Assembly (NCBI GenBank): GCA_038870455.1
Contig: JAWCPB010000002.1
Location: 2,247 to 66,246 of the forward strand
Origin: Candidatus Micrarchaeia archaeon
GTDB taxonomy: Archaea > Micrarchaeota > Micrarchaeia > Burarchaeales > JACRGF01
Reading direction: 5' to 3'
DNA length: 64,000 bases
The position numbers and the translations under genes are program-made. Under the pieces are notes generated by a model. The model was not told the DNA's origin. It made no database searches and worked only from the letters and a program-made list of their open reading frames with translations. Shown one piece after another: positions 2,059-17,895 of the stretch (positions within the stretch are counted from its first letter, which is position 1; each line of letters starts with the position of its first letter).

Positions 2059-2092
2059 ATACCCGTGAGGGCATAACATTCCACTTATTCTG

Positions 2093-2962: not shown

Positions 2963-2982
2963 AATCACCAATTATTCTTAGC

Positions 2983-3011
2983 GGAATAAATTATTCAACA
3001 ATTTATTTAAA
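2983..3011 (+). promoter_or_regulatory. GGAATA box (2983-2988) plus TATA-like tttatttaaa (3002-3011) upstream of the ThrC-like gene
   Basis: Same motif arrangement as at 1214, 6822 and 9488, about 35 bp upstream of the start at 3045. Confidence 0.45.
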
Positions 3012-3044
3012 CTCCGCCCGCCTAAAGCCTTCTCTCCTTCCGAG

Positions 3045-4301: not shown

Positions 4302-4569
4302 GGTGAGATTCTCCAGCGCGCTCAAGCCGCAGACGGGCGAGGCCGAGACAACCCTGCCCAAGGCCGGCAGTGTCGGGGAGGTTCTCGCCCTGCTTGTCAA
4401 GAAGTACGGCGAGGGCTTCCAGAAGCGCGTTTTCGACGAAAGCGGGAGCGTGCGCAGGTTCATCAACATCTATGTCAACGGCGAAGACATCCGCTTCAAG
4501 AATGGTCTGGCCAGCAGGCTCAAGGCTGGCGACGAGGTGCTCATTCTCCCCGCAGTGAGCGGCGGGTGA
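4270..4569 (+). CDS. MoaD/ThiS-like ubiquitin-fold sulfur-carrier protein number 1 (C-terminal GG)
   Basis: 99 aa (about 94 from the second Met). Ends ...VLILPAVSGG followed by stop. The beta-grasp pattern (IRVRF..., FINIYVNGEDIRF) resembles MoaD/SAMP. Confidence 0.8.
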   Translation: MGGRAMAKGIRVRFSSALKPQTGEAETTLPKAGSVGEVLALLVKKYGEGFQKRVFDESGSVRRFINIYVNGEDIRFKNGLASRLKAGDEVLILPAVSGG

Positions 4570-4573
4570 GGTA

Positions 4574-5323
4574 TTGGAGCTAAGCGATTACGACCTCAAG
4601 AGGTACGACCGGCAGATGCGCATTCACGGCTGGGGTGAGGAGGGGCAGAAGAGAATAAAGGCCGCAAAGGTGGGCGTCATTGGCACGGGGGGGCTTGGCT
4701 CCCCCCTCACAACCTACCTCGCGGTGGCGGGCGTGGGCAAAATAATCGCGGCCGACCGCGATGTGGTTGAGCTGTCGAACCTGAACAGGCAGATACTACA
4801 CTGGGACAAGGACATCGGCAGGAAAAAGGCAGAGAGCGCTGCCGAAAAGCTCAAGCAGGTCAATCCCTCCATTGAGGTGGTCGTCGTCGGCGAGGATGTG
4901 ACCGCGGAGAACATCGATAGGATATTTGAGGGCGTCGATGTCGTTGTTGACGGGCTGGACAATTACCCAAGCCGTTTCGTGCTCAACGAGTTCGCCGTGC
5001 GCAAGCGCATTCCGTTCGTTCACGGCAGCGTGTGGGGCATGGAGGGACGCGTGACAACCGTGATCCCAGGCAAGTCGCCTTGCCTGCGGTGCATCGTGCC
5101 CGAGGCCCCGCCGCGCGAGGTTTTTCCAGTGCTCGGCACAATTCCGGCTCTCGTGGCTACCATTCAGGCTACAGAGGTGCTCAAGTGCATAACGAAAGTT
5201 GGCCTGCTACTGACGGGCAGGCTGCTCGTCTACAATGGCGAGCACATGACTTTCGACGAGATTCCCCTCGAGAGGGACCCGGATTGTCCGGTGTGCTCGG
5301 CCCTCTGGACGAGCGAGGGCTGA
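4574..5323 (+). CDS. E1-like ThiF/MoeB/HesA family adenylyltransferase number 1
   Basis: 249 aa. YDRQMRIHGWGEEGQKRIKAAKVGVIGTGGLGS nucleotide-binding start. CLRC...CPVC zinc motif. No rhodanese domain. TGA stop at 5321-5323 lies in the same frame as the downstream CysK. Confidence 0.85.
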   Translation: MELSDYDLKRYDRQMRIHGWGEEGQKRIKAAKVGVIGTGGLGSPLTTYLAVAGVGKIIAADRDVVELSNLNRQILHWDKDIGRKKAESAAEKLKQVNPSIEVVVVGEDVTAENIDRIFEGVDVVVDGLDNYPSRFVLNEFAVRKRIPFVHGSVWGMEGRVTTVIPGKSPCLRCIVPEAPPREVFPVLGTIPALVATIQATEVLKCITKVGLLLTGRLLVYNGEHMTFDEIPLERDPDCPVCSALWTSEG

Positions 5324-6262
5324 GGTGGTTCCACGGCAAGATACGAGAGCGTCCTTGAGGCGATTGGCGGCACGCCGCTCATTCGCCTCAACAGGATAAC
5401 CAAGGGCCTGAAGCCTGTCATCTATGGCAAGCTCGAAGCCCGTAATCCAGCCTACTCAGTCAAGGACCGCATCGCGCTCGCCATGATCGAGGCAGCCGAG
5501 AGGCAGGGCGTGCTCAAACGCGGCTCAATCATCGTTGAGCCCACGAGTGGCAACACGGGCATCGGCCTCGCCATGGTGTGCGCGGTCAAGGGCTATCGCC
5601 TAAAGCTCACCATGCCCGAGAGCATGAGCCTGGAAAGGCGTGCCCTGTTGCGCGCTTTCGGCGCCGAGCTCATCCTCACCCCTGCCAGCGAAGGCATGCG
5701 CGGCGCTGTGGCGGCTGCAGAGGAGCTTGCCAGACAAGACAGGCACGTGTTCATCCCGCAGCAGTTCAAGAACAAGGCCAACGTGGAGATCCACAGGAAG
5801 ACAACCGCAGAAGAGATATGGCGGGATACAGAAGGGAAAATCACTCACTTTGTGGCCGGCGTGGGCACGGGCGGCACCATCACCGGGGTCGGGCAGGTGC
5901 TGAAGAAACGAAAGCCTTCAGTGAAAATCTATGCTGTCGAGCCTGCAGCTTCGCCCGTGCTGTCAGGCGGCAAGCCGGGTCCTCATAAGATTCAGGGCAT
6001 CGGCGCCGGCTTTGTGCCGGACATTCTCGACAGGAGCATCACCGACAGGATCATCCAGGTCTCGAACGAGGACGCGTTCGCCACAGCAAGGAGGCTCATC
6101 AGGGAAGAGGGCCTCCTTGTAGGAATCTCGGCTGGCGCGAACACCTGGGCAGCCCTCCAGGCCGCGGTGGAGGCGGACAAGGGCGACGTTATCGTCGTAG
6201 TGCTGCCCGATACGGGCGAGAGGTATATAAGCACAGACCTCTTTGCCGAATACAGGGAATGA
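5324..6262 (+). CDS. cysK: Cysteine synthase (O-acetylserine sulfhydrylase, CysK type) number 1; start unresolved
   Basis: Near-colinear with E. coli CysK from [19 protein letters not shown] through [11 protein letters not shown] (PLP lysine), [10 protein letters not shown] and [10 protein letters not shown]. The first in-frame ATG (5483) would delete the catalytic lysine. No ATG/GTG/TTG lies between the upstream in-frame TGA (5321) and the conserved N-terminus. Confidence 0.8.
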
Positions 6263-6263
6263 C

Positions 6264-6809
6264 ATGGCGTTGGATTTCCTGAAAACGCTTCTCGAGGACT
6301 TCACCACCCCATTCAAGAGAGACCCAGCAGCCACCAATATCCTAGAAGTGGTTTTCCTCTACCCCGGCGTGCATGCGATCCTGCTCCACCGCATCGCCCA
6401 CAGGCTGTGGCTATGGCGCATACCATTCATCCCGCGCGCGCTCAGCCACCTCAACCGGTTTCTCACAGGCATCGAGATTCACCCCGGCGCGACCATAGGC
6501 AGGCGTTTTTTTATTGACCACGGTGCGGGCGTGGTCATAGGCGAGACGGCCGAAATAGGCGACGACTGCACCCTTTATCAGGGTGTGACGCTCGGCGGCA
6601 CGGGCCTGCAGAGGGGCAAGCGCCATCCAACAGTCGAAAAGGAGTGTGTCATAGGCGCCGGCGCCATTCTGCTGGGGCCCATCCGCATAGGTCATCACAG
6701 TCGCATTGGCGCGGGCAGCGTGGTCAACAAGTCCTTCCCGCCCTATTCAACAGTCGTTGGTGTGCCGGGACGTGCGGTGACCAAGAGCACCTTCATCTAC
6801 CAGATATAG
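6264..6809 (+). CDS. cysE: Serine O-acetyltransferase (short form)
   Basis: Left-handed beta-helix hexapeptide repeats ([41 protein letters not shown]...RHP) like CysE. ATG at 6264 sits 1 nt after the cysK stop. An alternative ATG lies at 6243. Confidence 0.8.
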
Positions 6810-6821
6810 CCAATTCTGATT

Positions 6822-6854
6822 GGAATAGTTTAGTCAAAAATTTATTTAAATAAG
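6822..6854 (+). promoter_or_regulatory. GGAATAG box (6822-6828) plus TATA-like tttatttaaataag (6841-6854) upstream of the ATP-grasp gene
   Basis: AT-rich island in the 64-bp cysE/ATP-grasp gap. A CCAAT..ATTGG inverted repeat lies immediately upstream. Confidence 0.45.
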
Positions 6855-6873
6855 AATACAAGAAATACTGGGC

Positions 6874-8097
6874 ATGGCTGTTGGCATACTCCACGCGCAG
6901 GGACTCCTTGAGTTTGATGATCCCGCAAACGTCATATCCGGCCGAGCCGACAGGTCCGGAGTAATCCTCGCGGGGTTGGAGGCCAAACTGCGTGCTAAAG
7001 GTGTGGAAGTTATCCGCATTTCCAGTGAGAGCCTGAAAGGCGAATTCACCTCACCCCCGAACCTCTCCGTGCTCTACGTATTCCCGCTGTGCGCCAAGTA
7101 TTTTGAAGACCTGCCCAAAAAAGTTCGGACGAAGCTTGAGGAATGGGATGAGCGGGGCCTGCTCTTCAACCCGCTCGGAGCGCTTATCGCCCAAACAGAC
7201 AAGCGCGCCACGACCGAGGCATTCAAAAAGCACGGGGTTGCCATTCCGGAGACGCTCATCTCGTCAAACAGCAACGAGCTGGCTGCGTTCGTGAAAAATC
7301 ACCGCGTAGCAATCCTCAAGCCCACACACGGTGCTGGCGGCGGCAACATCCTCTTCCTGGTCTGGAAGGACGGGACGGTGTACGCCCGCGTGCCGCAGGA
7401 TGGCCGCATCGTCGAGCTGCCGTGTGAGTTCAAGCACTACACCACTCGCCATTCAAGACTTTACTCCGCGCACACCCACGATGGGCGTGTGCACATCCAT
7501 GGCGAGGTTGTTGTGCAGGAGGTCATCCAGCCGGAAGGGCGCTGGAACGAGAGCGTGCTCAAGGTGTATGTCGTGGATGGCAGGGCCGCTTTCGGGGTGG
7601 AACTCACGCGCAGCGCGAGCACCCCGGAAGAATCCATAATCACGTATGCGAACGCGGAACACAGGCTGGTGGATGTCAAATCGATCCCAAAAGAGGCCGT
7701 GGAGCTGGCCGTCAAGGCCGCCGCTGCGCTGGGCCTGCGCGCCTGCCTCGTTGATCTGATTAAAAAGAATGGGGGCTGGGTGGCGCTCGAGACCAACGGA
7801 GACAACATCTACACCATCCACGATAGGGGGTACCGTTTTGCGCAGGGTTTCAAACCAGAGTTTGATTTTGATGAGCATCTGGCCTCTGCGTTGGCCGCCC
7901 GCGACACTCTTTCGGACCGCAAGCGCGCTCCGGACAACCGCAGGGACAAGCACGTCTGCGCTCCTCTTCCCGTCAGCCCGGATCCGTTCGCGCGCGCCAA
8001 GGGCGTGACCCTCCCGCGCCCAGGCCAGGCAGGAGAGGGCCGGCAGCCTCTCTCGCTCGCCCAGGCTGGAAAGCCTAATAAAATCACGGTGAAATAA
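6874..8097 (+). CDS. ATP-grasp family ligase (RimK/GshB-like fold) with low-complexity C-terminal tail
   Basis: 407 aa. VAILKPTHGAGGGNILFLV glycine-rich ATP-binding loop. Overall N-domain, central-domain and C-domain layout of ATP-grasp enzymes. Pro/Arg-rich tail of about 80 aa. Confidence 0.6.
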   Translation: MAVGILHAQGLLEFDDPANVISGRADRSGVILAGLEAKLRAKGVEVIRISSESLKGEFTSPPNLSVLYVFPLCAKYFEDLPKKVRTKLEEWDERGLLFNPLGALIAQTDKRATTEAFKKHGVAIPETLISSNSNELAAFVKNHRVAILKPTHGAGGGNILFLVWKDGTVYARVPQDGRIVELPCEFKHYTTRHSRLYSAHTHDGRVHIHGEVVVQEVIQPEGRWNESVLKVYVVDGRAAFGVELTRSASTPEESIITYANAEHRLVDVKSIPKEAVELAVKAAAALGLRACLVDLIKKNGGWVALETNGDNIYTIHDRGYRFAQGFKPEFDFDEHLASALAARDTLSDRKRAPDNRRDKHVCAPLPVSPDPFARAKGVTLPRPGQAGEGRQPLSLAQAGKPNKITVK

Positions 8098-8105
8098 GCG
8101 GTTGT

Positions 8106-9011
8106 ATGGCAGGAAAAAAAAGGCCGGGAATCCTCTCCGCGATTGGAAACACGCCGCTGGTTGAGCTCGTCAAACTCAATCCCTCGCGCCCGCGCGTGCG
8201 CATCCTCCTCAAGCTCGAGGGCCACAACCCCACGGGAAGCCTCAAGGATCGCATAGCCCTCTACATGATTGAGAAGGCGGAGGAAAGGGGCGAGCTGACA
8301 AAGGGGAAAACTGTTCTAGAGGCCACGAGTGGCAACACGGGCATCGGCCTCGCCATGGTGTGCGCCGCCAAGGGCTATCCCTTCGTGGCGTGCATGAGCG
8401 AGAGGGAGAGCGCGGAGAGGAGGAAGATAATGAAGGCTTTCGGCGCAGAGATCATCCTCACGCCCGCAGAGCAGGGAACAGACGGAGCGATAAGGAGGGC
8501 GGACGAGCTGGCCGCCGCCCACCCGGAAAAATACTTCGTGCCGCGCCAGCACAGCAATCCGGACAACGCGCTCGCGCACTATGAGACGACGGGCCCAGAA
8601 ATCTGGGCACAGGCGAAGGGGGATGTCGATGTCTTCATCGCGGGCATCGGCACAACGGGCACGCTCATGGGTGTCGGCAGGTTCCTCAAGGAAAAGAACC
8701 CGCACGTGAAAGTCATCGGCGTGGAGCCGGCAGAGAAGCACAGGCTGTACGGCCTGCGCAACCTCACCGCCGCCATGGTGCCGCCCATCTTCAACCCCTC
8801 CCTGCTTGATGACAAGGTGCGCGTGGCCGATGAGCACGCCTACAGACTGACGAGAGAGCTCGCGCGCGCCGAAGGCGTATTCGCCGGAATCAGCACGGGC
8901 GCGGTCGTGTGGGCCGCCCTGGAGGCCGCGAAGTCGCTCGGCAGGGGCACGATAGTCGCGCTCTCGCCCGACAGGGGCGACAAGTACCTGAGCATCCCGG
9001 ATTTATTCTGA
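8106..9011 (+). CDS. cysK: Cysteine synthase (CysK/CysM type) number 2
   Basis: 301 aa. IGNTPLVEL...NPTGSLKDRIA (PLP lysine), [20 protein letters not shown]. Own ATG 8 nt after the ATP-grasp stop. Confidence 0.85.
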   Translation: MAGKKRPGILSAIGNTPLVELVKLNPSRPRVRILLKLEGHNPTGSLKDRIALYMIEKAEERGELTKGKTVLEATSGNTGIGLAMVCAAKGYPFVACMSERESAERRKIMKAFGAEIILTPAEQGTDGAIRRADELAAAHPEKYFVPRQHSNPDNALAHYETTGPEIWAQAKGDVDVFIAGIGTTGTLMGVGRFLKEKNPHVKVIGVEPAEKHRLYGLRNLTAAMVPPIFNPSLLDDKVRVADEHAYRLTRELARAEGVFAGISTGAVVWAALEAAKSLGRGTIVALSPDRGDKYLSIPDLF

Positions 9012-9039
9012 AACTATTCTTTTTTGAAATCCCTCTCGG

Positions 9040-9477
9040 GTGATGGCATTCGGCGCACGAAACAATCTTGTTGGGCCTGTGGGCGGAGCATTCTACGGGC
9101 CTGGAGGGAATCCGCACTGCCGCCCGCGCAACTGGTTTGGACTGGGCGACGGAGCCAAGCGCAGGCTTTCCAGCTGCGTGGGGCGCGTTGGAGAAAACGG
9201 CTTCTGTCTGAGGGCTACTGAGGTGTTTCGCGATGCCGCATTATCCGAGAGGGAGGAGATTTTGCACGGCGCGCTCGAGGCGCTCAGGAGGGAAAAGGAG
9301 GAAAACGGGCGTGTTCCCAGGGAGCTCTTGAAAAAAATCGTCAGGCTCATCGAAATAGACGCCTGGGCCGCGCGCCGCGTGCTGCAGGACTTCATCGGCG
9401 CGCTGAGGGCCGAGCGCAGCGAGGCCCTACCGCTCTTTGTCAAGCTCAAGGACTACTCAAACGCGAAGGCAACGTGA
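9040..9477 (+). CDS. Hypothetical protein (C-terminal half helical); start uncertain
   Basis: 145-aa ORF in the operon gap between cysK number 2 and MoaD number 2. No motif recognised. No JAMM signature. Confidence 0.3.
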   Translation: MMAFGARNNLVGPVGGAFYGPGGNPHCRPRNWFGLGDGAKRRLSSCVGRVGENGFCLRATEVFRDAALSEREEILHGALEALRREKEENGRVPRELLKKIVRLIEIDAWAARRVLQDFIGALRAERSEALPLFVKLKDYSNAKAT

Positions 9478-9487
9478 TATTCTTTTC

Positions 9488-9517
9488 GGAATAAAACTTA
9501 TAGGAAATTATTTATAT
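9488..9517 (+). promoter_or_regulatory. GGAATA box (9488-9493, in tttcggaataaaa) plus TATA-like attatttatat (9507-9517) upstream of MoaD number 2
   Basis: Same tttcggaata sequence as at 1211-1219. Lies in the AT-rich island 9478-9520. Confidence 0.45.
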
Positions 9518-9549
9518 GCGCACGACGGAATATCCTCGGGTGGTTTCCT

Positions 9550-9825
9550 TTGGTGAAGATAAGGTTCTCTTCAGCGATCGCCGCTGCGGTGAGGGGCGAG
9601 GCGGAGGCCACGCTGGACTTCGAGGGGGACGTCGCGGCGCTGCTCGCGCTTCTCTCCCAGAAGTACGGCGAGGGCTTTCAGAAGCGCATTCTCTCGGGCG
9701 GAAGGATAAACGGCTTCGTCAGCGTGTATCTCAACGGCGAGGACATCCGCTTTCTCAAGGACGTTCAGACCCGGGTGCGGAACGGCGACACGATATACAT
9801 CACTCCGGCCGTGTCGGGGGGCTGA
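9550..9825 (+). CDS. MoaD/ThiS-like sulfur-carrier protein number 2 (C-terminal GG)
   Basis: 91 aa with a TTG/GTG start. Ends ...IYITPAVSGG plus TGA. Paralogous to carrier number 1 (shared YGEGFQKR, NGEDIRF). Confidence 0.8.
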   Translation: MVKIRFSSAIAAAVRGEAEATLDFEGDVAALLALLSQKYGEGFQKRILSGGRINGFVSVYLNGEDIRFLKDVQTRVRNGDTIYITPAVSGG

Positions 9826-9830
9826 GCCCC

Positions 9831-10625
9831 GTGCCGCTGAGCCTGACCGAGCTCAAGCGCTACTCGCGCCAGCTCATCCTGCCGAACTTCGGCGCGAGAG
9901 AGCAGCGGAGGCTGAAGAACGCGAGGGTGGTCGTCACGGGAGCCGGCGGCATCGGCTGTCCCGTGCTGCTCAACCTCGCCGCCAGCGGCGTGGGAAGCAT
10001 AACAATCATAGACAGCGACAGCATTGACCTCACGAACTTGAACAGGCAGTTCCTCTTCACGCCAGCGGATGTGGGAAGGCCAAAGGCGGTGGTGGCCGCA
10101 GAGCGCATCCGCGCGTTCAATCCGGACATCGAGGTCAGGCCCGTTGTGAAGGTCATCGACTACTCCAACGCGTTCGACCTCCTCAAGGGCTTTGACGCAA
10201 TCATCGACGGCACGGACAACTTCGCCGCGCGCTATGCGATAAACGACGCCGCCGTGCTCAACAGGACCCCGCTGTTTCACGCCGCCGTTCTGCAGTACGA
10301 GGGACGCGTCTTCACCGTCATTCCCGGAAAGAGCGCCTGCCTGCGCTGCGCCTTCCCGGTCATCCCGCCAAAGGGAAGCATCCCCACCTGCAGGGAGGCG
10401 GGAGTTCTCGGAAGCGTCATAAGCGTGCTGGCAGGCATCCAGGCCACTGAGGCGATCAAGCACCTGGCCGGCCAGGGCGCGCGCCTGACCGACAGGATGC
10501 TGGTTTTCGACGGCAGGACCATGTCTTTCGACGAATTCCGCTTCAGGAGGAGGAGGGAGTGCAGCGCGTGCGGCCAAAAGGGCTTCACTTCCTCGCCGGT
10601 GTATCAAGAGGTTTGTGACATATGA
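9831..10625 (+). CDS. E1-like ThiF/MoeB adenylyltransferase number 2
   Basis: GTG at 9831, 5 nt after the MoaD number 2 stop. LKRYSRQLIL...ARVVVTGAGGIGC. CLRC...CSAC zinc motif. The ORF-track 5' extension (9516) is probably spurious. Confidence 0.8.
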   Translation: MPLSLTELKRYSRQLILPNFGAREQRRLKNARVVVTGAGGIGCPVLLNLAASGVGSITIIDSDSIDLTNLNRQFLFTPADVGRPKAVVAAERIRAFNPDIEVRPVVKVIDYSNAFDLLKGFDAIIDGTDNFAARYAINDAAVLNRTPLFHAAVLQYEGRVFTVIPGKSACLRCAFPVIPPKGSIPTCREAGVLGSVISVLAGIQATEAIKHLAGQGARLTDRMLVFDGRTMSFDEFRFRRRRECSACGQKGFTSSPVYQEVCDI

Positions 10626-10861
10626 AACAGATCCACGAGCTTGACCTGAGGGGCGAGAGGTGCCCTGACACCTTCACCTACACGAAGATTCGGGCGGAGG
10701 AGCTGCGGGAAGAGGGCAGGGCCGGCGACATCCTCAAGGTGATTGTCGACAACGAGCTCAGCGCCAGGGACGTTCCGGCGAGCATGCAGCTCGAGGGGCA
10801 CAGGGTGATAGAGGTCAGGAAGGCGAACGGGCTGTGGGAGCTTTTTTTCGAGATTAAATAG
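10622..10861 (+). CDS. TusA-like sulfurtransferase (CPxx motif)
   Basis: 79 aa. LDLRGERCPDTFTYTKIRAEEL matches the TusA/SirA LDxxGxxCP...K pattern. ATGA overlap with the E1 number 2 stop. Confidence 0.65.
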   Translation: MKQIHELDLRGERCPDTFTYTKIRAEELREEGRAGDILKVIVDNELSARDVPASMQLEGHRVIEVRKANGLWELFFEIK

Positions 10862-11911
10862 GTGGTTGAAATCAGGGAATGGGATGATGCTCTTGGCCTG
10901 ACCCCGCGGCTTGACTGCGGCCTGTGCGGGCTGGACTGCGGCGCGCTGGCCCGCAGGGCGCTCGCAGGAGCGAGCGAGTTCTCGGAGTGCATTCCCGCCA
11001 GGCAGAGCCCGCAGGCCGCGCCCGCGTTCGCAGAGCTGAGGCGAAAGCACTCGCCCTCGCGCCTGCCGGAGCCGAGGAAGGACGTGCTTGTCGTGCGCCC
11101 ATGCATCGATGTCGCGAACAGGGTGAGCGGCGAGGCGAACATCCGCCACTGGTCGCCATCCCCCTACCCGCCCTTTGACTCGGTGTATCTGGAGCATGCG
11201 TTGCGCACCAGCGGAGCCTTTGGCAACGTCAAGTACTCGCCCTCGCTTGGCATCGCAAACCTTCTGCTCAGCGAAGGGAGAGGAGTTGTCTTCTCCCGCT
11301 CCGGAAAAGCCATCGCGCGCGCCGCTTTCGACCTCAATGACTTGGAGAAAACATTCTCACTCGTTTCCCTGGTCTCCTGGCCCGCCGCGGTCTGCGGCGA
11401 ATGCGGTTCTCTCGCAATCGACTGCGCCATAGGCGCGTGCAACGCCTGCGGCGCCTGCCACGCCTCGCGCGTTCCCCCCTCCACAAACCTGCAGTCATCT
11501 GTACCGAGCCGCCGCGCCACCCCAGCCGTTTCCCTCCTCTCGCCCGCGGCGAATCACGCGATTGAAGGGATCGGAGCAGAGCCTGCACTCGAGAGTGCCG
11601 AGAAAAGAGCGTTCGCGCTGCTGCTCGAGGGCGATGCCGGCGCGCTGTTCCTCCTTGGGCTCGCCAAGCAGCTTCGCTTTCTCGCAGACGGGCTGGCCAG
11701 GGCAGGAGGGGGCCGGCAGCTGAAGAAAATCGCCAGGGAGGCCTGGGAGGCTCTCGAGACGGGGGATAAGAAAAAGGCGGAGCACGCTGCCGGAGATGCC
11801 GCGCGGGCTTTAGCCGAGCTCAAGCGCGGCTTTTCAGAAGGCGGGCAGGTTTGGGCCGCCAAGGCCGCAGGGGCATCGCTTAAAATAGCACGCGCTGCAA
11901 CAAAGCTCTGA
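10862..11911 (+). CDS. Cys-rich protein with two putative Fe-S-cluster (PF04060-like) domains
   Basis: 349 aa with a GTG start directly after the TusA stop. LDCGLCGLDCGALARRALAG and CGECGSLAIDCAIGACNACGAC resemble the CxxCGxxxCxxxA Fe-S domain of corrinoid/Fe-S proteins. The rest is uncharacterised. Confidence 0.5.
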   Translation: MVEIREWDDALGLTPRLDCGLCGLDCGALARRALAGASEFSECIPARQSPQAAPAFAELRRKHSPSRLPEPRKDVLVVRPCIDVANRVSGEANIRHWSPSPYPPFDSVYLEHALRTSGAFGNVKYSPSLGIANLLLSEGRGVVFSRSGKAIARAAFDLNDLEKTFSLVSLVSWPAAVCGECGSLAIDCAIGACNACGACHASRVPPSTNLQSSVPSRRATPAVSLLSPAANHAIEGIGAEPALESAEKRAFALLLEGDAGALFLLGLAKQLRFLADGLARAGGGRQLKKIAREAWEALETGDKKKAEHAAGDAARALAELKRGFSEGGQVWAAKAAGASLKIARAATKL

Positions 11912-11920
11912 GGTGCGCGA

Positions 11921-13396
11921 ATGGCGCTGCGCGTGCACAACACCCTATCCAAGAGGCTCGAGGAATTTGTTCCGGGCGAGCCGGGCTTGGTGCGCATGTA
12001 CGTGTGCGGCCTGACCCCATACGACAGATTCCACCTCGGCCACGCGCGTACTTACGTTGCCTTTGACATCATAAGGCGGTACCTCGAGTTCGTCGGCTAT
12101 CGCGTGCTGCACGTTCAAAACATCACTGACGTGGATGACAAGATACTCAACCGTGCAAGGGAGCGCAGCGAGGAGCCTCTGGCGATGGCGGAGCACTTCA
12201 GCAAGCTCGCCATGCAGGAGTCCGACCTCCTCGGCATACGGAGGGCGCACCACTATCCCAAGGTCAGCGAGCACATTCCAGAAATAATCTCCCTCGTCGA
12301 ACGCATTGCCAGCAAGGGCTTTGCCTACGAGACAGAGGACGGCGTGTATTTCGACGTCGAAAAATTCCCTGGCTATGGCAAGCTCAGCGGGCAAAAGCTT
12401 GATGAGATAAAAGCTGGCGCGCGCATCGCCGTGGATGAGAGGAAGAGGCACCCGGCTGACTTCGCGCTTTGGAAGAAGTGGAAGCCCGGCGAGGCGCTCG
12501 CCTGGGACTCGCCCTGGGGGCGGGGCAGGCCGGGCTGGCACATCGAATGCTCCGCCATGAGCGCGAAGTACCTCGGCCAGTCGTTCGACATCCACGGCGG
12601 GGGCAGCGACCTCATCTTTCCCCATCACGAGAACGAAATCGCCCAGAGCGAGGCGGCGAGCGGAAAACAGTTTGCGCGCTACTGGCTTCACACAGGCTGG
12701 CTGACCGTGAAGAAGCAGAAGATGGCAAAGTCGCTCAAGAACTTCATCACGGTGGAGGGGGCGCTGGCCAAGTGGGAGCCCGAGGTGCTGCGGCTGTTTT
12801 TCGCCTCCACACACTACCGCTCCCCGCTCGACTTCAACGAGGGCTCGCTTGAGGCCGCGCGCGCGGGCTTGGCCACGCTGCGCAGCGCGCTGTACAACGC
12901 CGCAGAGGCAAGGCCCTCGAGGGGCCGCCCGGCAAAGTGGCTCGAGGAGGCTGTTGCCAAGCACAGGGAGGCCTTTCTGGCGGCCATGGACAACGACTTC
13001 GACACCAGCACCGCGCTCGCCCACCTGTTCGAGATCGCCAAGCACATAAACACGTACATCAACGAGGGGAAAATCGACAGCCACGTGCTCGAGCACGCGG
13101 TCGCCGAGTACAAGAGCCTCGCGGGCATACTCGGCCTGCTCGAGAGCCTTCCCAGGAAAATAGCGAGTGAAGAGGATACCGCCCGGCTCAGGGTGCTTGC
13201 GGCCTCGCTGGGCGTGGACAGTGAAAAAGCAGAGCGCCTCGGCTTCACCGAGCTCATGTCGCTCGTGATCGCCGAGAGGGAGAAGGCGAGGAAGGCAAAG
13301 GACTTCGCGAGGGGCGACGAGATCAGAAAGGCGCTGCGCGGCCTCGGCATAGCCATCGAGGACACTCCAAGGGGAACGGTCTGGCGGTTTGCATGA
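11921..13396 (+). CDS. cysS: Cysteinyl-tRNA synthetase
   Basis: 491 aa. HLGHARTY (HIGH), KMAKSLKN (KMSKS), class I fold and C-terminal anticodon-binding helices. Confidence 0.9.
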   Translation: MALRVHNTLSKRLEEFVPGEPGLVRMYVCGLTPYDRFHLGHARTYVAFDIIRRYLEFVGYRVLHVQNITDVDDKILNRARERSEEPLAMAEHFSKLAMQESDLLGIRRAHHYPKVSEHIPEIISLVERIASKGFAYETEDGVYFDVEKFPGYGKLSGQKLDEIKAGARIAVDERKRHPADFALWKKWKPGEALAWDSPWGRGRPGWHIECSAMSAKYLGQSFDIHGGGSDLIFPHHENEIAQSEAASGKQFARYWLHTGWLTVKKQKMAKSLKNFITVEGALAKWEPEVLRLFFASTHYRSPLDFNEGSLEAARAGLATLRSALYNAAEARPSRGRPAKWLEEAVAKHREAFLAAMDNDFDTSTALAHLFEIAKHINTYINEGKIDSHVLEHAVAEYKSLAGILGLLESLPRKIASEEDTARLRVLAASLGVDSEKAERLGFTELMSLVIAEREKARKAKDFARGDEIRKALRGLGIAIEDTPRGTVWRFA

Positions 13397-14418
13397 CTGC
13401 GCGTGAGAAGGAAAAGGAGGCTCTCTACTGGCGCGTGCTCAAGGGCGACGCGCTGCAGTGCACGCTGTGCCCTCACTGGTGCACAATTCTCGAGGGAAGA
13501 AGGGGAAGGTGCAGGGTCAGGGAGAACAGGCGCGGCAGGCTCTACTCGCTGGTCTACGGCAAGCCGTCGGCGATTCAGATAGACCCCATTGAGAAAAAAC
13601 CGAACTTTCACTTCCTGCCCGGCTCGCTGTCGTATTCCATTGGCACGGTGGGCTGCAACCTGAGGTGCGCCTTCTGCCAGAACTGGCAGCTTTCGCAGGC
13701 GAGCCCCGGCGACCTGCCGCATTATGATCTCCCACCACAGGCGGTTGTTGACGAGGCGCTGCGGTACGGCTGCGCCTCGATCGCCTATACCTACAACGAC
13801 CCAGTGGTGTTCATCGAATACGTCATGGACACGGCCAGGCTCGCCCGTCCGCGAGGGCTGCGGAGCGTTTTCGTCACGGCTGGCTTCATCAACCCGCAGC
13901 CGCTCGACGAACTGTGCGGGCTCATCGACAGCGCGCATGTCGATCTCAAGGGATTCAGCGAGCAGTTTTACAGGGAAGTGAGCGGTGCCCGCCTCGCCCC
14001 AGTGCTTGCCACGCTGAAGACGCTCAAGAAAAGGGGCATCTGGTTCGAGGTCATTCACCTCACCGTGCCGGGCCTCTCGGACGACCCTGATGAGATTCGC
14101 ATGATGTGCGAGTGGATGCGGGAGAACATCGGCACAGAAGTCCCGCTTCACTTCACCCAGTTCCACCCGGAGTACAAGATGCTGACCACGCCCGTCACCC
14201 CAGTCGCATCGCTCGAGCGCGCTCACGCCATCGCGAAAGACGTGGGCCTAGAGTATGTCTATGTCGGCAACGTTCCCGGCCACCCTCTCGAGAACACCTA
14301 CTGCCCGAAATGCAACAACCTCCTCATCGAGAGGTGGGGGTTCGAAATACTAAAGAATCTAATACCGGAAGGTATGTGTCCTTACTGCGGCAAAAAACTT
14401 GCTGGAGTATGGCGATAG
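13393..14418 (+). CDS. Radical SAM enzyme, AmmeMemoRadiSam-system type (PFL-activase-like)
   Basis: 341 aa. CNLRCAFCQN (CxxxCxxC). The LQCTLCPHWCTI N-terminal Cys cluster is typical of this family. 4-nt overlap with cysS. Confidence 0.75.
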   Translation: MTAREKEKEALYWRVLKGDALQCTLCPHWCTILEGRRGRCRVRENRRGRLYSLVYGKPSAIQIDPIEKKPNFHFLPGSLSYSIGTVGCNLRCAFCQNWQLSQASPGDLPHYDLPPQAVVDEALRYGCASIAYTYNDPVVFIEYVMDTARLARPRGLRSVFVTAGFINPQPLDELCGLIDSAHVDLKGFSEQFYREVSGARLAPVLATLKTLKKRGIWFEVIHLTVPGLSDDPDEIRMMCEWMRENIGTEVPLHFTQFHPEYKMLTTPVTPVASLERAHAIAKDVGLEYVYVGNVPGHPLENTYCPKCNNLLIERWGFEILKNLIPEGMCPYCGKKLAGVWR

Positions 14419-14537
14419 GCCAGGGTGGCAGAGCGGCTATGCAGCCGGCTGCAGACAACCTTTTGCCGGCGGTCCGGCAAAAGCGTTGACGGAAAAGCAG
14501 TCACCGGCGCAGGGGAGTTCAACTCTCCCCCCTGGCT
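14419..14537 (+). tRNA. tRNA-Cys (anticodon GCA) containing a 48-nt intron (14455-14502) at canonical position 37/38
   Basis: Perfect 7-bp acceptor stem (GCCAGGG / CCCTGGC). T-arm GGGAG-TTCAACT-CTCCC. D-arm GCA/AGCGGCT/TGC. Anticodon stem GCCGG/CCGGC once 14455-14502 is removed, giving loop CUGCAGA (GCA at 14451-14453). Discriminator U73, the tRNA-Cys identity element. The intron forms a BHB-like motif (bulges AG|A and UC|A flanking a CTGC/GCAG helix) plus a 10-bp internal hairpin. The gene starts 1 nt after the radical-SAM stop. Confidence 0.8.
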
Positions 14538-14646
14538 TTTAACTTCGCCAGAGAACGGAGCAGCGCGTGCAGCCTTGCTGAAGAGCGCGCCCTCAGCTTG
14601 AGCGGGCGGCGCATGGAAAAGAACAGGCGCGGCGCGCAGCCCCCTG

Positions 14647-14913
14647 TCAGGCCCATATCACCCTCCCGTAGTAGTTGGCTTCGGCTCTTGTCTTGTAGCA
14701 GACAAAGCACACGGCATAACCGTTCTCGTACATCATCTCGGCATAGCTCGTCTCGAGCCCGCACACCATGCAGCGGTCGCGCGGGATCTCCCAGCGTGGG
14801 TTTGGCGTGGAGGACAGCCTCTTTTCGGCAGGTGCCGTTTCCCTAGGCTCTTCCTCCGCAAGGAGGTTTTTGAGTGCCTGGATGAGGCCCGCGACAGAGA
14901 CCATGCTCCACAC
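14647..14913 (-). CDS. Small zinc-ribbon protein (CxxC...CxxC)
   Basis: 88 aa. RCMVCG...CFVCYKT four-Cys arrangement. Lies between the tRNA and the Lrp gene. Confidence 0.35.
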   Translation of the reverse strand: MWSMVSVAGLIQALKNLLAEEEPRETAPAEKRLSSTPNPRWEIPRDRCMVCGLETSYAEMMYENGYAVCFVCYKTRAEANYYGRVIWA

Positions 14914-15009
14914 CGCGCTGGCCTGGGCCTGCTTTTTATTTAAAAGTTTTCAAGAAAAATTTTGAAAAAAAGAAAAAATTGATAAACCCGACGCAACAAT
15001 TACAAAAAC

Positions 15010-15996
15010 ATGCCCGGCTCTCAGATGAAGCTCGATGCGCTCGACCGCCGCATTCTTTTCGAGCTCGACGGAAATTCCCGGATGCCGCTGACGCGCATGG
15101 CGAGGAGGCTGAAGACCTCCCCGCAGCTGGTCGCCTACAGAATCCGCTCGCTCGAGAAGAGAGGCGTCATAAAGGGCTACACCGCGCTCATCGACTACAA
15201 GAGCGCGGGTTACACCTTCTACACAGCCTACTACGCCCTGAAGAACATTTCCCCGCGTGTTGTGGCCAAATTCTGCAGGTTTCTGCTCGCCGAGCCCAAA
15301 GTGTGCATCCTCCTCGAATGCGAGGGGCGGTGGGATGTCATGGTTGGAATACTCGCCCGCGACCCCGTTGAGTTCTACAACATCCTGCTCGGCATCAGAA
15401 ACCGCTTCGGCGGCTACATCCTGGAGAGAACCATCGTGACGCACATCGGCGCGCGGCACTGCAGGAGGAAATACCTGTTGAGCAAGGAGTTCTCTGAGGG
15501 AGAGTTTGCCCACATCACGGGAGGAAAGCTTTCGCGCACCAGGCTTGTCAGCGGGGACGAGGAACTCCTGCGCGTGCTCACAAACAATGTCAGGGCCAGC
15601 GTGCTAGAGCTGGCTTCGGCGACAGGCGAGAGCCCTTATGCCGTGAGGAGGAGGCTCAAGCGCCTTGTCAGCGATAGGATTATACTGCGCACGGGTTTTC
15701 TGCCAGACCACGCGCGCTACGGCTATGCCTACAAGCGCGTACTGCTGTCGCTCCACCACACCACAGCCGGAAAGTTCGAGCTGCTGAAGAGCTTTTTCGT
15801 CCAGCATCCGAACGTGAAGAGGGTAACGAGCGCTTTCGGCAGGTACGACCTGATAGTCGATGGAGAGTTCGAGCACGAGAGGGAGTTCAGGGCTTTCATC
15901 ACCGAGCTGAGAACGAGGTTCGGCGGTGTGATTGCTCACTATGACACGCTCGAGGTGCTGAAAGTCCACCGGTTCCGCTTCTTCCCGTGCGCCTAG
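15010..15996 (+). CDS. Lrp/AsnC-family transcriptional regulator with two tandem HTH plus RAM (AsnC-type) modules
   Basis: 328 aa. LDALDRRILFELDGNSRMPLTRMARRLKTSPQLVAYRIRSLEKRGVIKGYTALID, then a second module LRVLTNNVRASVLELASATGESPYAVRRRLKRLVSDRIIL...YKRVLLSL. AT-rich promoter island at 14930-15005. Confidence 0.7.
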   Translation: MPGSQMKLDALDRRILFELDGNSRMPLTRMARRLKTSPQLVAYRIRSLEKRGVIKGYTALIDYKSAGYTFYTAYYALKNISPRVVAKFCRFLLAEPKVCILLECEGRWDVMVGILARDPVEFYNILLGIRNRFGGYILERTIVTHIGARHCRRKYLLSKEFSEGEFAHITGGKLSRTRLVSGDEELLRVLTNNVRASVLELASATGESPYAVRRRLKRLVSDRIILRTGFLPDHARYGYAYKRVLLSLHHTTAGKFELLKSFFVQHPNVKRVTSAFGRYDLIVDGEFEHEREFRAFITELRTRFGGVIAHYDTLEVLKVHRFRFFPCA

Positions 15997-15999
15997 CCC

Positions 16000-16209
16000 C
16001 TATTTTCGCTTGCCCGCCCTGCCCGCCTTGGCCTGCTGGTGGAGGGTGTAAAAAGCTGCCCCGATTGCCAGCCATATCACGGCCAGGTCGAGCCCTTTGA
16101 AGGTGTAGGGCGCATTGAGGCTGAACAGCCCGCTCAGCGCGATGACAACGCTGAGCGCCATGAAGCCCACGCGGAGCCACCACAGGTATTTCTCGGCCAT
16201 GCCCGGCAT
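16000..16209 (-). CDS. Small two-TM membrane protein (hypothetical)
   Basis: 69 aa with two hydrophobic helices and a basic C-terminus. Confidence 0.3.
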   Translation of the reverse strand: MPGMAEKYLWWLRVGFMALSVVIALSGLFSLNAPYTFKGLDLAVIWLAIGAAFYTLHQQAKAGRAGKRK

Positions 16210-16272
16210 TGGAGCGCTGTAAATTTAAACCTTACGCAAAGGGCTTTTAATCTCGGGCCGCGAAATAACGCC

Positions 16273-17265
16273 ATGGTTCTCCTGTCCATCGTGTTGGGCG
16301 TGCTCGCGCTCTACCTCATACTCAAGGGCTCGGAGTGGGTCACGGACTCCAGCGTGCACGTCGCCCAGAGGCTCAGCACCACAAACGTCGCGGTCGGCCT
16401 CATCCTCGTGGCGGCGCTGCTGTCGCTGCCCGAGCTCGTCGTCGCGCTGTCGAGCGTGGCCAAGGGGCACACCGACATGGGCATTGGCGTCACGCTCGGC
16501 TCGGTCATCGTAAACATCGGCCTCATCGTAGGAATAAGCGCGCTCATCAGGCCGCTGCGCGTATCGCGCGTCATGATCACGCGCGACGCGGTGTTCATGG
16601 TCGTCATCACCATCGTGGTCGCGGCCATCGCGCTCGAGGACCTCGAGCTCACGCGCGTTGACGGCTTCGTCCTCCTCCTGCTCTTCATCCCGTACTTCGT
16701 GAATGTGTACGAGCAGGAGCGCGTGCTCACCGCCAAGCAGAGGGTGGTCGAGACGCATAAGATAGTCAAGAGCCTGCATCTGTTCGGAAAGATGGGCTTC
16801 GGCAAGCTGGTCGTGCACGACGGCCTCAAGGTCTTCCTCGCTGGCGTGGCGCTGCTGCTGGTCGGGGCGGAGTTCTTCACCCAGTCCATGGTCGGCCTAG
16901 CGGGCTTCTTCAGGCTCTCCGATTTCGTGGTCGGCATCACGCTCGGCGCGCTCGGCCCGAGCCTGCCGAGCCTCGCGAGCGCCATTCAGGCTGAAAAGCG
17001 GGGTTACGAGGAGCTGGCCGTGAGCGAGACGATAGGAAGCAACATCTTCACCCTGCTCATCACGCTCGGGGCGATCGCGCTCGTCACCCCCCAGTCCATC
17101 AACTTCGTCACGGCGGTGGTCACCACGCCGGCCATTCTCCTGCTCAGCTTTCTGCTTCTCTTCTTCATGATAAGGGGCAGGATAGGCAGGCGCGCCGGCG
17201 CGGTGCTGCTGATGATATACCTCGCCGCCACCCTGCTGCAGCTCGTCGTGCCGAACCTCTTCTGA
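16273..17265 (+). CDS. Na+/Ca2+ exchanger (CaCA family, YrbG-like) membrane protein
   Basis: About 330 aa from the internal ATG. Two alpha-repeat regions (GLILVAALLSLPELVVALSS and GITLGALGPSLPSLASAIQA...GSNIFTLL) typical of cation/Ca2+ exchangers. The ORF-track start 16039 is probably too far upstream. Confidence 0.7.
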   Translation: MVLLSIVLGVLALYLILKGSEWVTDSSVHVAQRLSTTNVAVGLILVAALLSLPELVVALSSVAKGHTDMGIGVTLGSVIVNIGLIVGISALIRPLRVSRVMITRDAVFMVVITIVVAAIALEDLELTRVDGFVLLLLFIPYFVNVYEQERVLTAKQRVVETHKIVKSLHLFGKMGFGKLVVHDGLKVFLAGVALLLVGAEFFTQSMVGLAGFFRLSDFVVGITLGALGPSLPSLASAIQAEKRGYEELAVSETIGSNIFTLLITLGAIALVTPQSINFVTAVVTTPAILLLSFLLLFFMIRGRIGRRAGAVLLMIYLAATLLQLVVPNLF

Positions 17266-17274
17266 GGTGCTGCC

Positions 17275-17895
17275 ATGCAGAAAGTCGTCGCGCTTCTCTC
17301 GGGCGGCATCGACTCGCCTGTCGCGGCCTGGCTGGCCGCGCGCGCCGGCCTCGAGCCCGTGCTCGTGCATTTTGACAACAGGCCCTTTTCCTCGGGCGAC
17401 AGCCTAGTGTGCGTGCTCAAGGTCGCCGCCAGGCTGCGGGAAAAGCTCGGAAAACTTGAGGGCTATCTCATCCCGCACGGCGGCGATGTCGCCGCCTTCC
17501 TGCGCGCCTGCTCTCCACACAACACGTGCATCCACAGCAGGCGGCATATGCATCGCGTGGCGGCCCTGCTCGCCGCCAGGCTCGGCGCGTCCGCGCTCGT
17601 GGCCGGCGACTTCATCGCCTCGAAGGCCTCCCAGACTCCGCAGAACCTCGCCGTGCTCGACAGCGCCTCGTCCCTGCCTGTTCTCAGGCCGCTTGCCGGG
17701 CTCGGCAAGGAGGAGATAGAGCGCATGGCCAGGCTGCTGGGGACGTTTGAGCTCGCCTCGCTTCACCCGACCTGCACCGCAACGCCCGAAAAGCCAAGCA
17801 CAGGAGCGCGGCTGGAGGAGGTTCTTGCGGACGAGGCGAAGCTTGACGTTGGAAAAATGGCAGCGCGCTCTCTCGCGGCCGCGACGCCGTTGTGA
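17275..17895 (+). CDS. ThiI-like PP-loop ATP pyrophosphatase domain protein (no THUMP or rhodanese domain)
   Basis: 206 aa. VVALLSGGIDSPVAAWL (SGGxDS PP-loop). RPLAGLGKEEI resembles the ThiI RPLIGMDKxEI segment. Confidence 0.6.
   Translation: MQKVVALLSGGIDSPVAAWLAARAGLEPVLVHFDNRPFSSGDSLVCVLKVAARLREKLGKLEGYLIPHGGDVAAFLRACSPHNTCIHSRRHMHRVAALLAARLGASALVAGDFIASKASQTPQNLAVLDSASSLPVLRPLAGLGKEEIERMARLLGTFELASLHPTCTATPEKPSTGARLEEVLADEAKLDVGKMAARSLAAATPL

Follow-up and report, generated by a model that had tools for sequence, protein, structure and literature searches.

A predicted Fe-S/TBP-like protein family linked to TusA and SufS is a candidate component of archaeal sulfur relay

Among the known systems closest to the locus studied here are the IscS-TusA relay of Escherichia coli and the rhodanese domains of MoeZ, MOCS3 and Uba4. 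What they have in common with it is a persulfide carrier of the TusA type, a ThiF/MoeB-type activating enzyme (E1) and a carrier protein ending in Gly-Gly. Bacteria and eukaryotes use a rhodanese domain that is not known from most archaeal E1s. For archaea it is an acknowledged gap how ubiquitin-like carriers, SepCysS and tRNA-thiolating enzymes obtain their sulfur. The sulfur donors have been described as "largely unknown" (PMC11323500). Here we describe a gene run in a stretch of 64,000 nt from a Candidatus Micrarchaeia archaeon (the window), in which the gene of a TusA-like sulfur carrier is followed directly by that of a cysteine-rich protein of 349 amino acids, below called X. Gene loci of the X family are given L-numbers and its proteins P-numbers.

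As in the IscS-TusA and MoeZ-type systems, the product expected from the window genes would be a carrier thiocarboxylate. The window differs from these systems in that it has neither a desulfurase nor a rhodanese domain on its E1s, and in that the translation of a predicted multi-cluster iron-sulfur (Fe-S) protein is coupled to that of TusA. The reading that we prefer, with a probability of roughly 0.4, is that TusA and X are the module that loads sulfur in a route to cysteine by way of sulfur-carrier proteins, and that X has a role in sulfur relay. The same route would probably also make homocysteine. What would be new, as far as sequences can tell, is an undescribed Fe-S/TBP-like component in such a relay.

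A sequence-only reading of this DNA had placed a TusA-like gene and a gene for a Cys-rich protein directly after the second of two E1 genes (E1-2). Both genes are present at these positions, as open reading frames (ORFs) that start with ATG and GTG, respectively, in the ORF list as well as in the raw sequence (Table 1). The junctions that had been described are also seen in the raw sequence. At 10622-10625 the four letters ATGA contain the start codon of TusA (10622-10624) and the TGA stop codon of E1-2 (10623-10625), and the TAG stop codon of TusA (10859-10861) is followed, with no gap, by the GTG of X at 10862. Upstream, E1-2 is separated by 5 nt from the gene of a MoaD/ThiS-like carrier (MoaD2); downstream, X is separated by 9 nt from the gene of the cysteinyl-tRNA synthetase CysRS, which overlaps the following radical-SAM gene by 4 nt. 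MoaD2, E1-2, TusA, X, CysRS and the radical-SAM enzyme are thus encoded in a tight co-directional run, where all gaps are at most 9 nt or replaced by overlaps. The true start of E1-2 is the GTG at 9831; the ORF listed for it, 9516-10625, overlaps MoaD2 in another frame. The same gene order is found in one other locus, L001, where a CysM-like enzyme is encoded upstream of the run, as in the window, and where the zero-gap junction between TusA and X is kept.

Neither E1 has a rhodanese domain. In Pfam and NCBIfam, both the first E1 (E1-1) and E1-2 consist of a ThiF domain alone, in line with what had been claimed. The claim that no cysteine desulfurase is nearby holds as well: a tblastn search of the 64-kb window with two SufS-type and one NifS-type sequences gave only matches with E>1. 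E1-2 has a cysteine in the crossover loop, Cys187 (PTC187REAG), and another in its tail, Cys262, three residues from the C-terminus; both are kept in its L001 homologue, which is 81% identical. In E1-1 there is a six-residue deletion at the crossover loop and no cysteine in the tail. Because Cys187 and Cys262 of E1-2 are absent from E1-1, the two enzymes may differ in their sulfur-transfer chemistry. The carrier MoaD2 is matched by the MoaD_arch and SAMP1 models, in both cases below their cut-offs.

The small protein between E1-2 and X is TusA-like, as proposed: it matches PF01206 with 57.4 bits (cut-off 28.6) over profile positions 1-68 of 70, and it has the Cys14-Pro pair. It scores below the cut-offs of the NCBIfam equivalogs, with 34.2 bits against 79 for YedF and 20.6 bits against 78 for TusA. 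Judged by these scores it is a generic PF01206 member that is not assignable to TusA proper or to the YedF equivalog; for brevity we call it TusA. Its RGERC14PD segment aligns with LGLRC19PE of E. coli TusA, and Cys14 is the counterpart of Cys19, the persulfide-accepting residue of the E. coli protein. The relatives with known structure are TM0983 and the thiosulfate-handling YeeD/TsuB. In L001 the protein is 86% identical and encoded at the same position. As a protein, TusA is unremarkable within a known family, and it is the gene context that is unusual.

This context is a sulfur-amino-acid island; the genes that Table 1 lists for the region 1279-17895 are on the + strand. CysK and CysE are the classical genes of sulfide-dependent cysteine synthesis. 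Another enzyme, which depends on pyridoxal phosphate (PLP) and belongs to the CysK/CysM subfamily, has CysM as its closest equivalog (349.8 bits, cut-off 394) and a syntenic counterpart in L001 with 86% identity; this CysM-like enzyme probably consumes the carrier thiocarboxylate. The island makes cysteine, and therefore cysteine is not a sensible source of the sulfur for its carriers, which is a further difference from the IscS-TusA and MoeZ-type systems. The mycobacterial CysO-CysM-MoeZ system and the pairs of ThrC-like and MoaD-like proteins in homocysteine synthesis are the basis for comparing the island as a whole. Like CysO-CysM-MoeZ, the window contains MoaD-like carriers, E1s and CysM-like as well as ThrC-like enzymes, here in one island. 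Unlike in the mycobacterial system, the E1s are free of rhodanese domains, no JAMM/Mec+ protease was recognised, and TusA and X are found instead.

In NCBI the protein identical to X is named "hypothetical protein QXH27_00580" and belongs to a metagenome-assembled genome (MAG) of a Candidatus Micrarchaeia archaeon. A word-indexed homology search with X found only X itself and one relative, P0002, and the use of a 57-sequence alignment as query added none. When 1.84 billion representatives (50%-identity clusters) were searched exhaustively with HMMER, the result was 76 proteins at E<=1e-3, 25 of them at E<=1e-10. P0002 is 70% identical to X, is encoded on a metagenome contig from JGI with the same gene order, and has kept all 11 cysteines. 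With this homologue, a family of 76 members and a confident structural model, X is a real gene. Most members are 320-436 amino acids long, and the shorter ones resemble fragments. All members with a named source are archaeal, from Micrarchaeia, Bathyarchaeia, Hydrothermarchaeota, Hadarchaeota, Theionarchaea, one unclassified euryarchaeote and the Asgard class Ranarchaeia. Their database names are "hypothetical", "(Fe-S)-binding protein" and, in IMG, "ArsR family metal-binding transcriptional regulator". We found no characterised member, and no description of the family in the literature searched, whose coverage did not extend to subscription journals.

Next, we studied the gene neighbourhoods of the family in about 34 distinct loci, taken from a scan of a genome collection (L003-L014), a scan of metagenomes (L021-L031) and look-ups of individual members. 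An all-against-all clustering of the neighbouring ORFs gave one recurrent neighbour, a SufS-family cysteine desulfurase with the motif RSGHHCA, which scores 426-485 bits on TIGR01979 (cut-off 475). It is located at most two genes from X in 14 of the loci. SufS immediately precedes X on the same strand, with a gap of 8-120 nt, in L009, L010, L011, L013, L015, L018 and L034; it is convergent and 0-85 nt downstream of X in L003, L004, L005, L006 and L033; and it is one gene removed in L002 and L008. The loci with this link are from Bathyarchaeia, Hydrothermarchaeota, Theionarchaea and unclassified archaea, and the identities of X between the groups are 36-52%. Since archaeal genomes carry one to three desulfurase genes (an estimate), the recurrence of SufS beside X is far beyond chance, with the reservation that the loci are not all independent.

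TusA, ThiF or MoaD genes adjacent to X in the manner of the window are found in the window and L001 only. In these Micrarchaeia, TusA holds the upstream, same-strand place that SufS often holds elsewhere, and both proteins would carry a persulfide on a cysteine. Other sulfur-related neighbours are found as well. In L015 the order is ThiI/THUMP-SufS-X. In L017 the X homologue P0012 is followed by an unknown gene and CysRS, with a stand-alone ThiI gene nearby. In L034 the order is NadA-SufS-X, and in L012 MoaD and MoaE are upstream of the X homologue.

Adjacency to a desulfurase is the hallmark of Fe-S scaffolds and sulfur acceptors, as in NifS-NifU, IscS-IscU and SufS-SufU/SufE. X could thus be a scaffold or carrier of Fe-S clusters like NifU, IscU or SufU, which receives its sulfur from SufS or TusA. 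The clusters would be built on the Cys-rich and TBP-like part of the protein, while the PF04060-type cluster described below would be permanent, like the central [2Fe-2S] cluster of NifU. The SufS adjacency in 14 loci would be expected from such a protein, SufE, SufU and IscU were not seen in the SufS-X loci, Fe-S enzymes are encoded nearby (NadA in L034 and IlvD in L013), and X is built of modules, one of them a cluster domain that looks stable, with further cysteine sites beside it. However, X resembles known scaffolds neither in sequence nor in fold, the X of the window is part of an operon for carriers, E1 and cysteine synthesis, no SufBC-type genes were seen beside it there, and the neighbours CysRS, SepRS-SepCysS and ThiI favour sulfur transfer over cluster assembly. 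We regard a scaffold as doubtful. Like SufE/CsdE, SufU/IscU and NifU, the X family adjoins a SufS/CsdA-type desulfurase and is often apparently co-transcribed with it, although not in the window. In contrast to these proteins, X has about 11-13 conserved cysteines, which form three groups, and a domain predicted to be dedicated to electron transfer.

The neighbourhoods also bear on the simplest explanation, that X is a generic small redox or zinc-binding protein whose sulfur neighbourhood has no functional meaning for the carrier. Over half of the loci show no sulfur genes, and the second cysteine motif could be a structural zinc ribbon. Nevertheless, two arrangements and no fewer than six divergent lineages have SufS next to X, for which chance is a very unlikely explanation (again based on the estimate above), the TusA-X junction without a gap is kept in L001, and all 11 cysteines are kept between two Micrarchaeia proteins that are 70% identical. 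A generic protein is accordingly the least probable of the explanations considered here, and a very improbable one.

One of the SufS loci has a particular composition. On the contig of a Bathyarchaeia MAG (L009, 5816-11245), SepCysS, SepRS, SufS and X are encoded on one strand, where SepCysS scores 406 bits on TIGR02539 and SepRS 514 bits on TIGR00470. A desulfurase-like enzyme within a cluster for tRNA-dependent cysteine synthesis is odd, because drawing sulfur from cysteine in order to make cysteine is circular. The arrangement bears on the question of the in-vivo sulfur donor of SepCysS.

The circularity in L009 would be avoided if sulfur moved in the reverse direction. X would then capture inorganic sulfur, either through the oxidation of sulfide or through cleavage of thiosulfate or polysulfide. 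TusA or SufS would receive it from X as a persulfide and in turn feed the E1; X would be the entry point of sulfur and not a resolving reductase. This agrees with a cysteine-making operon in a window without a desulfurase, where the sulfur must be inorganic, with the thiosulfate-decomposing YeeD/TsuB among the relatives of TusA, and with the TauE/SafE anion permease of the same island. The sequence itself gives no direction. However, PF04060 clusters in characterised proteins, such as the corrinoid/FeS protein, are low-potential electron donors, which fit a reduction better than an oxidation of sulfide. Further, the partner of X is mostly a bona fide SufS-type desulfurase that loads itself from cysteine. 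Overall we find the reverse direction unlikely.

The structure of X was predicted with AlphaFold2. With an alignment of 77 sequences, the model has a mean predicted local distance difference test score (pLDDT) of 92.6 and a predicted template modelling score (pTM) of 0.92; from two sequences, residues 1-219 had a pLDDT below 35. According to this model and to profile searches, the architecture of X is a [4Fe-4S] domain of the type found in the corrinoid/FeS protein and RnfB (residues ~1-60), a TBP-like repeat, a Cys-rich motif and a helical bundle. We found this combination of domains in no protein that has been solved or described.

The sequence-only reading had given X a pair of PF04060-like domains. 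This is right for the first cluster, which is PF04060-like with a score below the threshold, while the second is a different motif: with matches up to E 0.1 considered, PF04060 was found at residues 15-45 and no second copy at residues 178-200. When searched alone against the sequences in the PDB, X had no match. The homology of the first domain is supported through the family, because 41 of the 77 members match PF04060 (best E-value 5.1e-11) and the family profile matches the [4Fe-4S] domain in the large subunit of the corrinoid/FeS protein (2h9a_A) with E=3.9e-10. RnfB (8ahx_B) is matched by the profile with E=1.2e-5. Residues 1-60 of X are homologous to the corrinoid/FeS protein (AcsC/CdhE; 2h9a, 4djd) and RnfB, with the four cysteines aligned and a similar preceding helix. 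Past residue 60 X is unrelated to them: there is no TIM-barrel corrinoid domain, and there are no ferredoxin repeats and no membrane anchor.

For the central domain, a Foldseek search of the model against the PDB gave TBP in all of the top 40 matches, with a probability of ~1.0, a best E-value of 0.035 and a root-mean-square deviation of 2.6-3.5 Å over 93 columns. The family profile also matches the TBP of Methanocaldococcus jannaschii (E=1.1e-4). This domain contains Cys81 in a Pro-Cys motif and the conserved residues S126, G130, G148 and R153. With the TBP superfamily, that is TBP and the archaeal single-TBP-domain proteins, X shares the fold of the repeat and a weak likeness in sequence; it differs in its single repeat, the added Pro-Cys81 and the Cys-rich motif that comes after. 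MoeB homologues that carry a TBP domain at the C-terminus, with unknown function, have been reported (Brindefalk et al. 2013, PMC3597702). Such fusions possibly link the TBP fold to E1 enzymes in the way of a "Rosetta stone". Among the 77 members of the X family there is no fusion to an E1/ThiF domain and no domain other than PF04060 and PhoU.

In the Cys-rich motif, the last four cysteines of the X in the window are spaced C-x4-C-x2-C-x2-C, and many relatives have C-x4-C-x2-C-x4/5-C-P. The best likeness of the C-terminal bundle to PhoU (4q25) in Foldseek has E=1.2.

Several known families were tried as a home for X and rejected or, in the case of PhoU, considered improbable. X is not TBP proper, as the model has a single repeat and no tandem pair that forms a DNA-binding saddle. 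The likeness to PhoU is weak and sporadic: two of 77 members match PF01895 (best E-value 1.2e-6), and X itself does not. With the corrinoid/FeS protein or its activator X has only the N-terminal domain of 60 residues in common. There is no match in Pfam, NCBIfam or the PDB to SufE/CsdE, SufU/IscU or NifU, no Fer4 match in any member as expected from a 2x[4Fe-4S] ferredoxin (CxxCxxCxxxCP), and no Pfam match to the methanogen homocysteine-synthesis families (DUF39 and NIL-ferredoxin). X thus matched no known unrelated family with non-sulfur neighbours, a possibility that the sequence-only reading had raised itself, and the informative neighbours are related to sulfur.

The TBP-like domain raises another explanation, in which X monitors or regulates the status of sulfur, cysteine or Fe-S clusters. 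Redox state or sulfide would be sensed by the clusters of X, and the signal would reach DNA or a partner enzyme through the TBP-like domain, which may act as a dimer, or through the PhoU-like bundle. The Fe-S sensors IscR and SufR are typically encoded beside isc or suf genes. The central domain of X is homologous to the DNA-binding repeat of TBP, two members match the regulatory PhoU domain, two are named as ArsR-family regulators in JGI/IMG (the basis of the name is untraceable), and in L008 an ArsR-type helix-turn-helix (HTH) gene is located between SufS and X. However, there is only a single TBP repeat, and none of the 77 members has an HTH. Folds like that of TBP also have roles not related to DNA (PMC3597702). 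The zero-gap junction with TusA and the gaps of 8-10 nt after SufS in L010, L011 and L034 resemble those of subunits or pathway partners. Further, a separate HTH-CBS regulator is encoded in the window and in six other loci, and this explanation is slightly weakened because the recurrent gene already offers a candidate regulator. That X is a regulator is in our view improbable, to about the same degree as a reverse direction of transfer.

The cysteines of the X family fall into groups of different conservation. Group 1 (C19, C22, C26 and C43) is 100% conserved wherever the N-terminal domain is present. Group 2 is an almost invariant trio: C81 is conserved in 100% of the members where the position is present, C178 in 96% and C181 in 99%. 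Positions 111 and 125 are cysteines in 74-76% of the family, and the pair is lost together in 11 members. Group 3 (C188, C193, C196 and C199) is 59-84% conserved; in 8-9 members its four cysteines are missing together, which suggests one separate metal site. The pattern of group 2 suggests another site with three protein ligands, to which the 111/125 pair may be an accessory dithiol. With group 1, the joint losses across the family thus point to three sites for a metal or for redox chemistry. A trio of C81, C178 and C181 with the co-varying C111 and C125 would fit a cluster beside a redox-active dithiol, by analogy with ferredoxin:thioredoxin reductase and HdrB. To these proteins X has no likeness in sequence; the motifs CCG, CPC and CHC are absent, and the X of the window lacks the cysteine pair.

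With these elements the sulfur-relay reading of TusA and X can be put as a sequence of steps. Cys14 of TusA would carry a persulfide from a source other than cysteine, which may be thiosulfate, polysulfide or sulfide. E1-2 would adenylate the C-terminus of MoaD2. The sulfur would then go to Cys187 or Cys262 of E1-2, or straight to the adenylated MoaD2, and its attack on MoaD2 would give an acyl-persulfide or an acyl-disulfide. A parallel for this transfer step is the acyl-disulfide mechanism of Cys184 in ThiF. X would accept electrons through its low-potential [4Fe-4S] domain of the PF04060 type, and its second metal centre (C81, C178 and C181 on the TBP-like domain) would reductively resolve the acyl-persulfide or disulfide. 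This would release the thiocarboxylate of MoaD2, or sulfur at the level of sulfide. The thiocarboxylate would be used by the CysM-like and ThrC-like PLP enzymes. In the relatives that are linked to SufS, X would act likewise on the persulfide of SufS.

It should be kept in mind that gene order, domain content, conservation and co-occurrence are what we observe in these genomes, and that the chemistry is what we infer from them. The same division applies to the earlier proposal that TusA and the Cys-rich protein supply sulfur to the carrier: a role in sulfur trafficking is strengthened by the neighbours of the relatives and by the operon, whereas the proposed chemistry, a reduction of persulfide or a handling of sulfide, is not.

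For the family as a whole, a wider function can be proposed more tentatively, as something possible that we would not call likely. X proteins may be adaptors and reductants of archaeal sulfur trafficking, which deliver sulfide-level sulfur to E1-activated carriers of the MoaD/SAMP type, to SepCysS and to ThiI. Their partners would be SufS-type desulfurases in Bathyarchaeia, Hydrothermarchaeota and Theionarchaea, and TusA in Micrarchaeia. In these archaea X would do what rhodanese domains and SufE/SufU acceptors do in bacteria and eukaryotes, and take their place.

A number of observations weigh against the role in sulfur relay that we prefer. Some concern the protein itself. The cofactor content of X is deduced from cysteine patterns alone, and the CxxCG and CxxC pairs of the second motif are also typical of zinc ribbons. 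The match of X to PF04060 (residues 15-45, E=9.4e-4) has 19.3 bits and is below the cut-off of 23. Both Micrarchaeia proteins have a first cluster of the form C-x2-C-x3-C-x16-C, where the norm in the family is C-x2-C-x4-C-x16-C, so that one residue is deleted between the second and third cysteine. Further, unlike ~75% of the family, the X of the window does not have the C111/C125 pair (E111 and Y125 are found there).

Others concern the neighbourhoods. The adjacency of TusA and X represents one evolutionary event, because it is seen on two closely related Micrarchaeia contigs only. In ~20 of the ~34 loci X has no sulfur neighbours. These include a subgroup similar to P0011 (L019, L021-L026 and L029/L030), a subgroup without the N-terminal Fe-S domain (L032 and L035) and the Asgard member. 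In the metagenomes the P0011-like subgroup is mostly on short contigs, and its neighbours, an unknown protein of 231 amino acids and a NOG1 GTPase, say little about function. Finally, CysE and CysK are both encoded in the island, where free sulfide may be used directly, and MoaD-type adenylates can react with sulfide in vitro with no helper (PMC11323500).

What was a Cys-rich hypothetical protein is now a defined and modelled family, with a clear architecture and three groups of cysteines. Across lineages it is linked to SufS, SepRS/SepCysS, ThiI and CysRS, and in the window to TusA, E1 and MoaD. X is a concrete and testable candidate for the sulfur donor or adaptor in the thiocarboxylation of archaeal carriers, and for a partner of archaeal SufS. 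If X should be a regulator or a scaffold instead, it would still be a new partner of archaeal cysteine desulfurases.

The genes of the island and the domains of X are listed in Table 1.

Table 1. Positions of genes in and beside the sulfur-amino-acid island of the window, and of the predicted domains of X.
Feature	Position	Strand	Evidence or details
HTH-CBS regulator	619-1179	-	
TauE/SafE-family anion permease	1279-2058	+	E=3.4e-43
ThrC-like PLP enzyme, N-terminal Cys4 ribbon	3045-4301	+	TIGR00260 285.8 bits, cut-off 167
MoaD-like carrier 1, ends SGG	4270/4285-4569	+	PF02597 E=1.2e-14
E1-1, 249 aa	4574-5323	+	PF00899 E=2e-75
CysK	about 5351-6262	+	TIGR01139 457.2 bits, cut-off 351
CysE, serine O-acetyltransferase	6243-6809	+	TIGR01172 233.7 bits, cut-off 210.65
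ATP-grasp enzyme (RimK/LysX/GshB-like)	6874-8097	+	weak family matches
CysK/CysM-subfamily PLP enzyme (CysM-like)	8106-9011	+	TIGR01136 376.6 bits, cut-off 344
145-aa protein	9040-9477	+	
MoaD/ThiS-like carrier 2 (MoaD2), 91 aa, ends SGG	9550-9825	+	PF02597 E=1.3e-9
E1-2, ThiF/MoeB-type adenylyltransferase, 264 aa, GTG start	9831-10625	+	PF00899 E=3.2e-83
TusA/SirA-family sulfur carrier (TusA), 79 aa	10622-10861	+	PF01206 E=1.3e-15
X, Fe-S/TBP-like family protein, 349 aa	10862-11911	+	
X residues 15-45, predicted [4Fe-4S]-type PF04060 domain	10904-10996	+	C19, C22, C26, C43
X residues ~75-175, predicted single TBP-like fold	11084-11386	+	AlphaFold model, Foldseek, family profile
X residues 176-203, Cys-rich motif	11387-11470	+	C178-x2-C181-x6-C188-x4-C193-x2-C196-x2-C199
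X residues 223-348, predicted C-terminal helical bundle	11528-11905	+	six helices, pLDDT 90-98
CysRS	11921-13396	+	PF01406 E=3.8e-127
AmmeMemoRadiSam-type radical-SAM enzyme	13393-14418	+	TIGR04337 392.7 bits
Stand-alone ThiI PP-loop protein	17275-17895	+	E=2.4e-41

Some further features of the island can be noted. The TauE/SafE permease and the stand-alone ThiI gene flank it. Upstream, the ThrC-like enzyme, carrier 1 and the minimal E1-1 form a module (3045-5323) that may be a carrier-dependent route to homocysteine. In L001 the ThrC-like gene (91% identical) is located directly before the ATP-grasp gene, and the block of carrier 1, E1-1, CysK and CysE is absent.

The junction between E1-1 and CysK is unusual. 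The TGA stop codon of E1-1 (5321-5323) is in frame with CysK, none of the codons ATG, GTG and TTG occurs from 5324 to 5483, and the conserved N-terminus of CysK starts around 5342-5351. The translated junction resembles a flexible linker. It could be explained by a non-canonical start codon, by an E1-CysK fusion made through read-through of the TGA, by a recent nonsense mutation or by an assembly error.

The ATP-grasp enzyme sits among the cysteine-synthesis genes and is 55% identical at the same place in L001. The ORF of 145 amino acids, which has no family match, is also found there at the same position, with 57% identity. The inspected neighbours of the radical-SAM gene include no recognisable gene for AMMECR1 or Memo; the arrangement of this gene after CysRS is kept in L001.

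The HTH-CBS regulator gene is found near X, SufS or cysteine clusters in the window and in L001, L008, L010, L011, L012 and L014. Mostly these genes encode an HTH_3 domain, and that of L008 has a winged HTH of the HrcA type. The HTH-CBS protein is a candidate for the regulation of these sulfur clusters, in which it would sense an adenosyl ligand.

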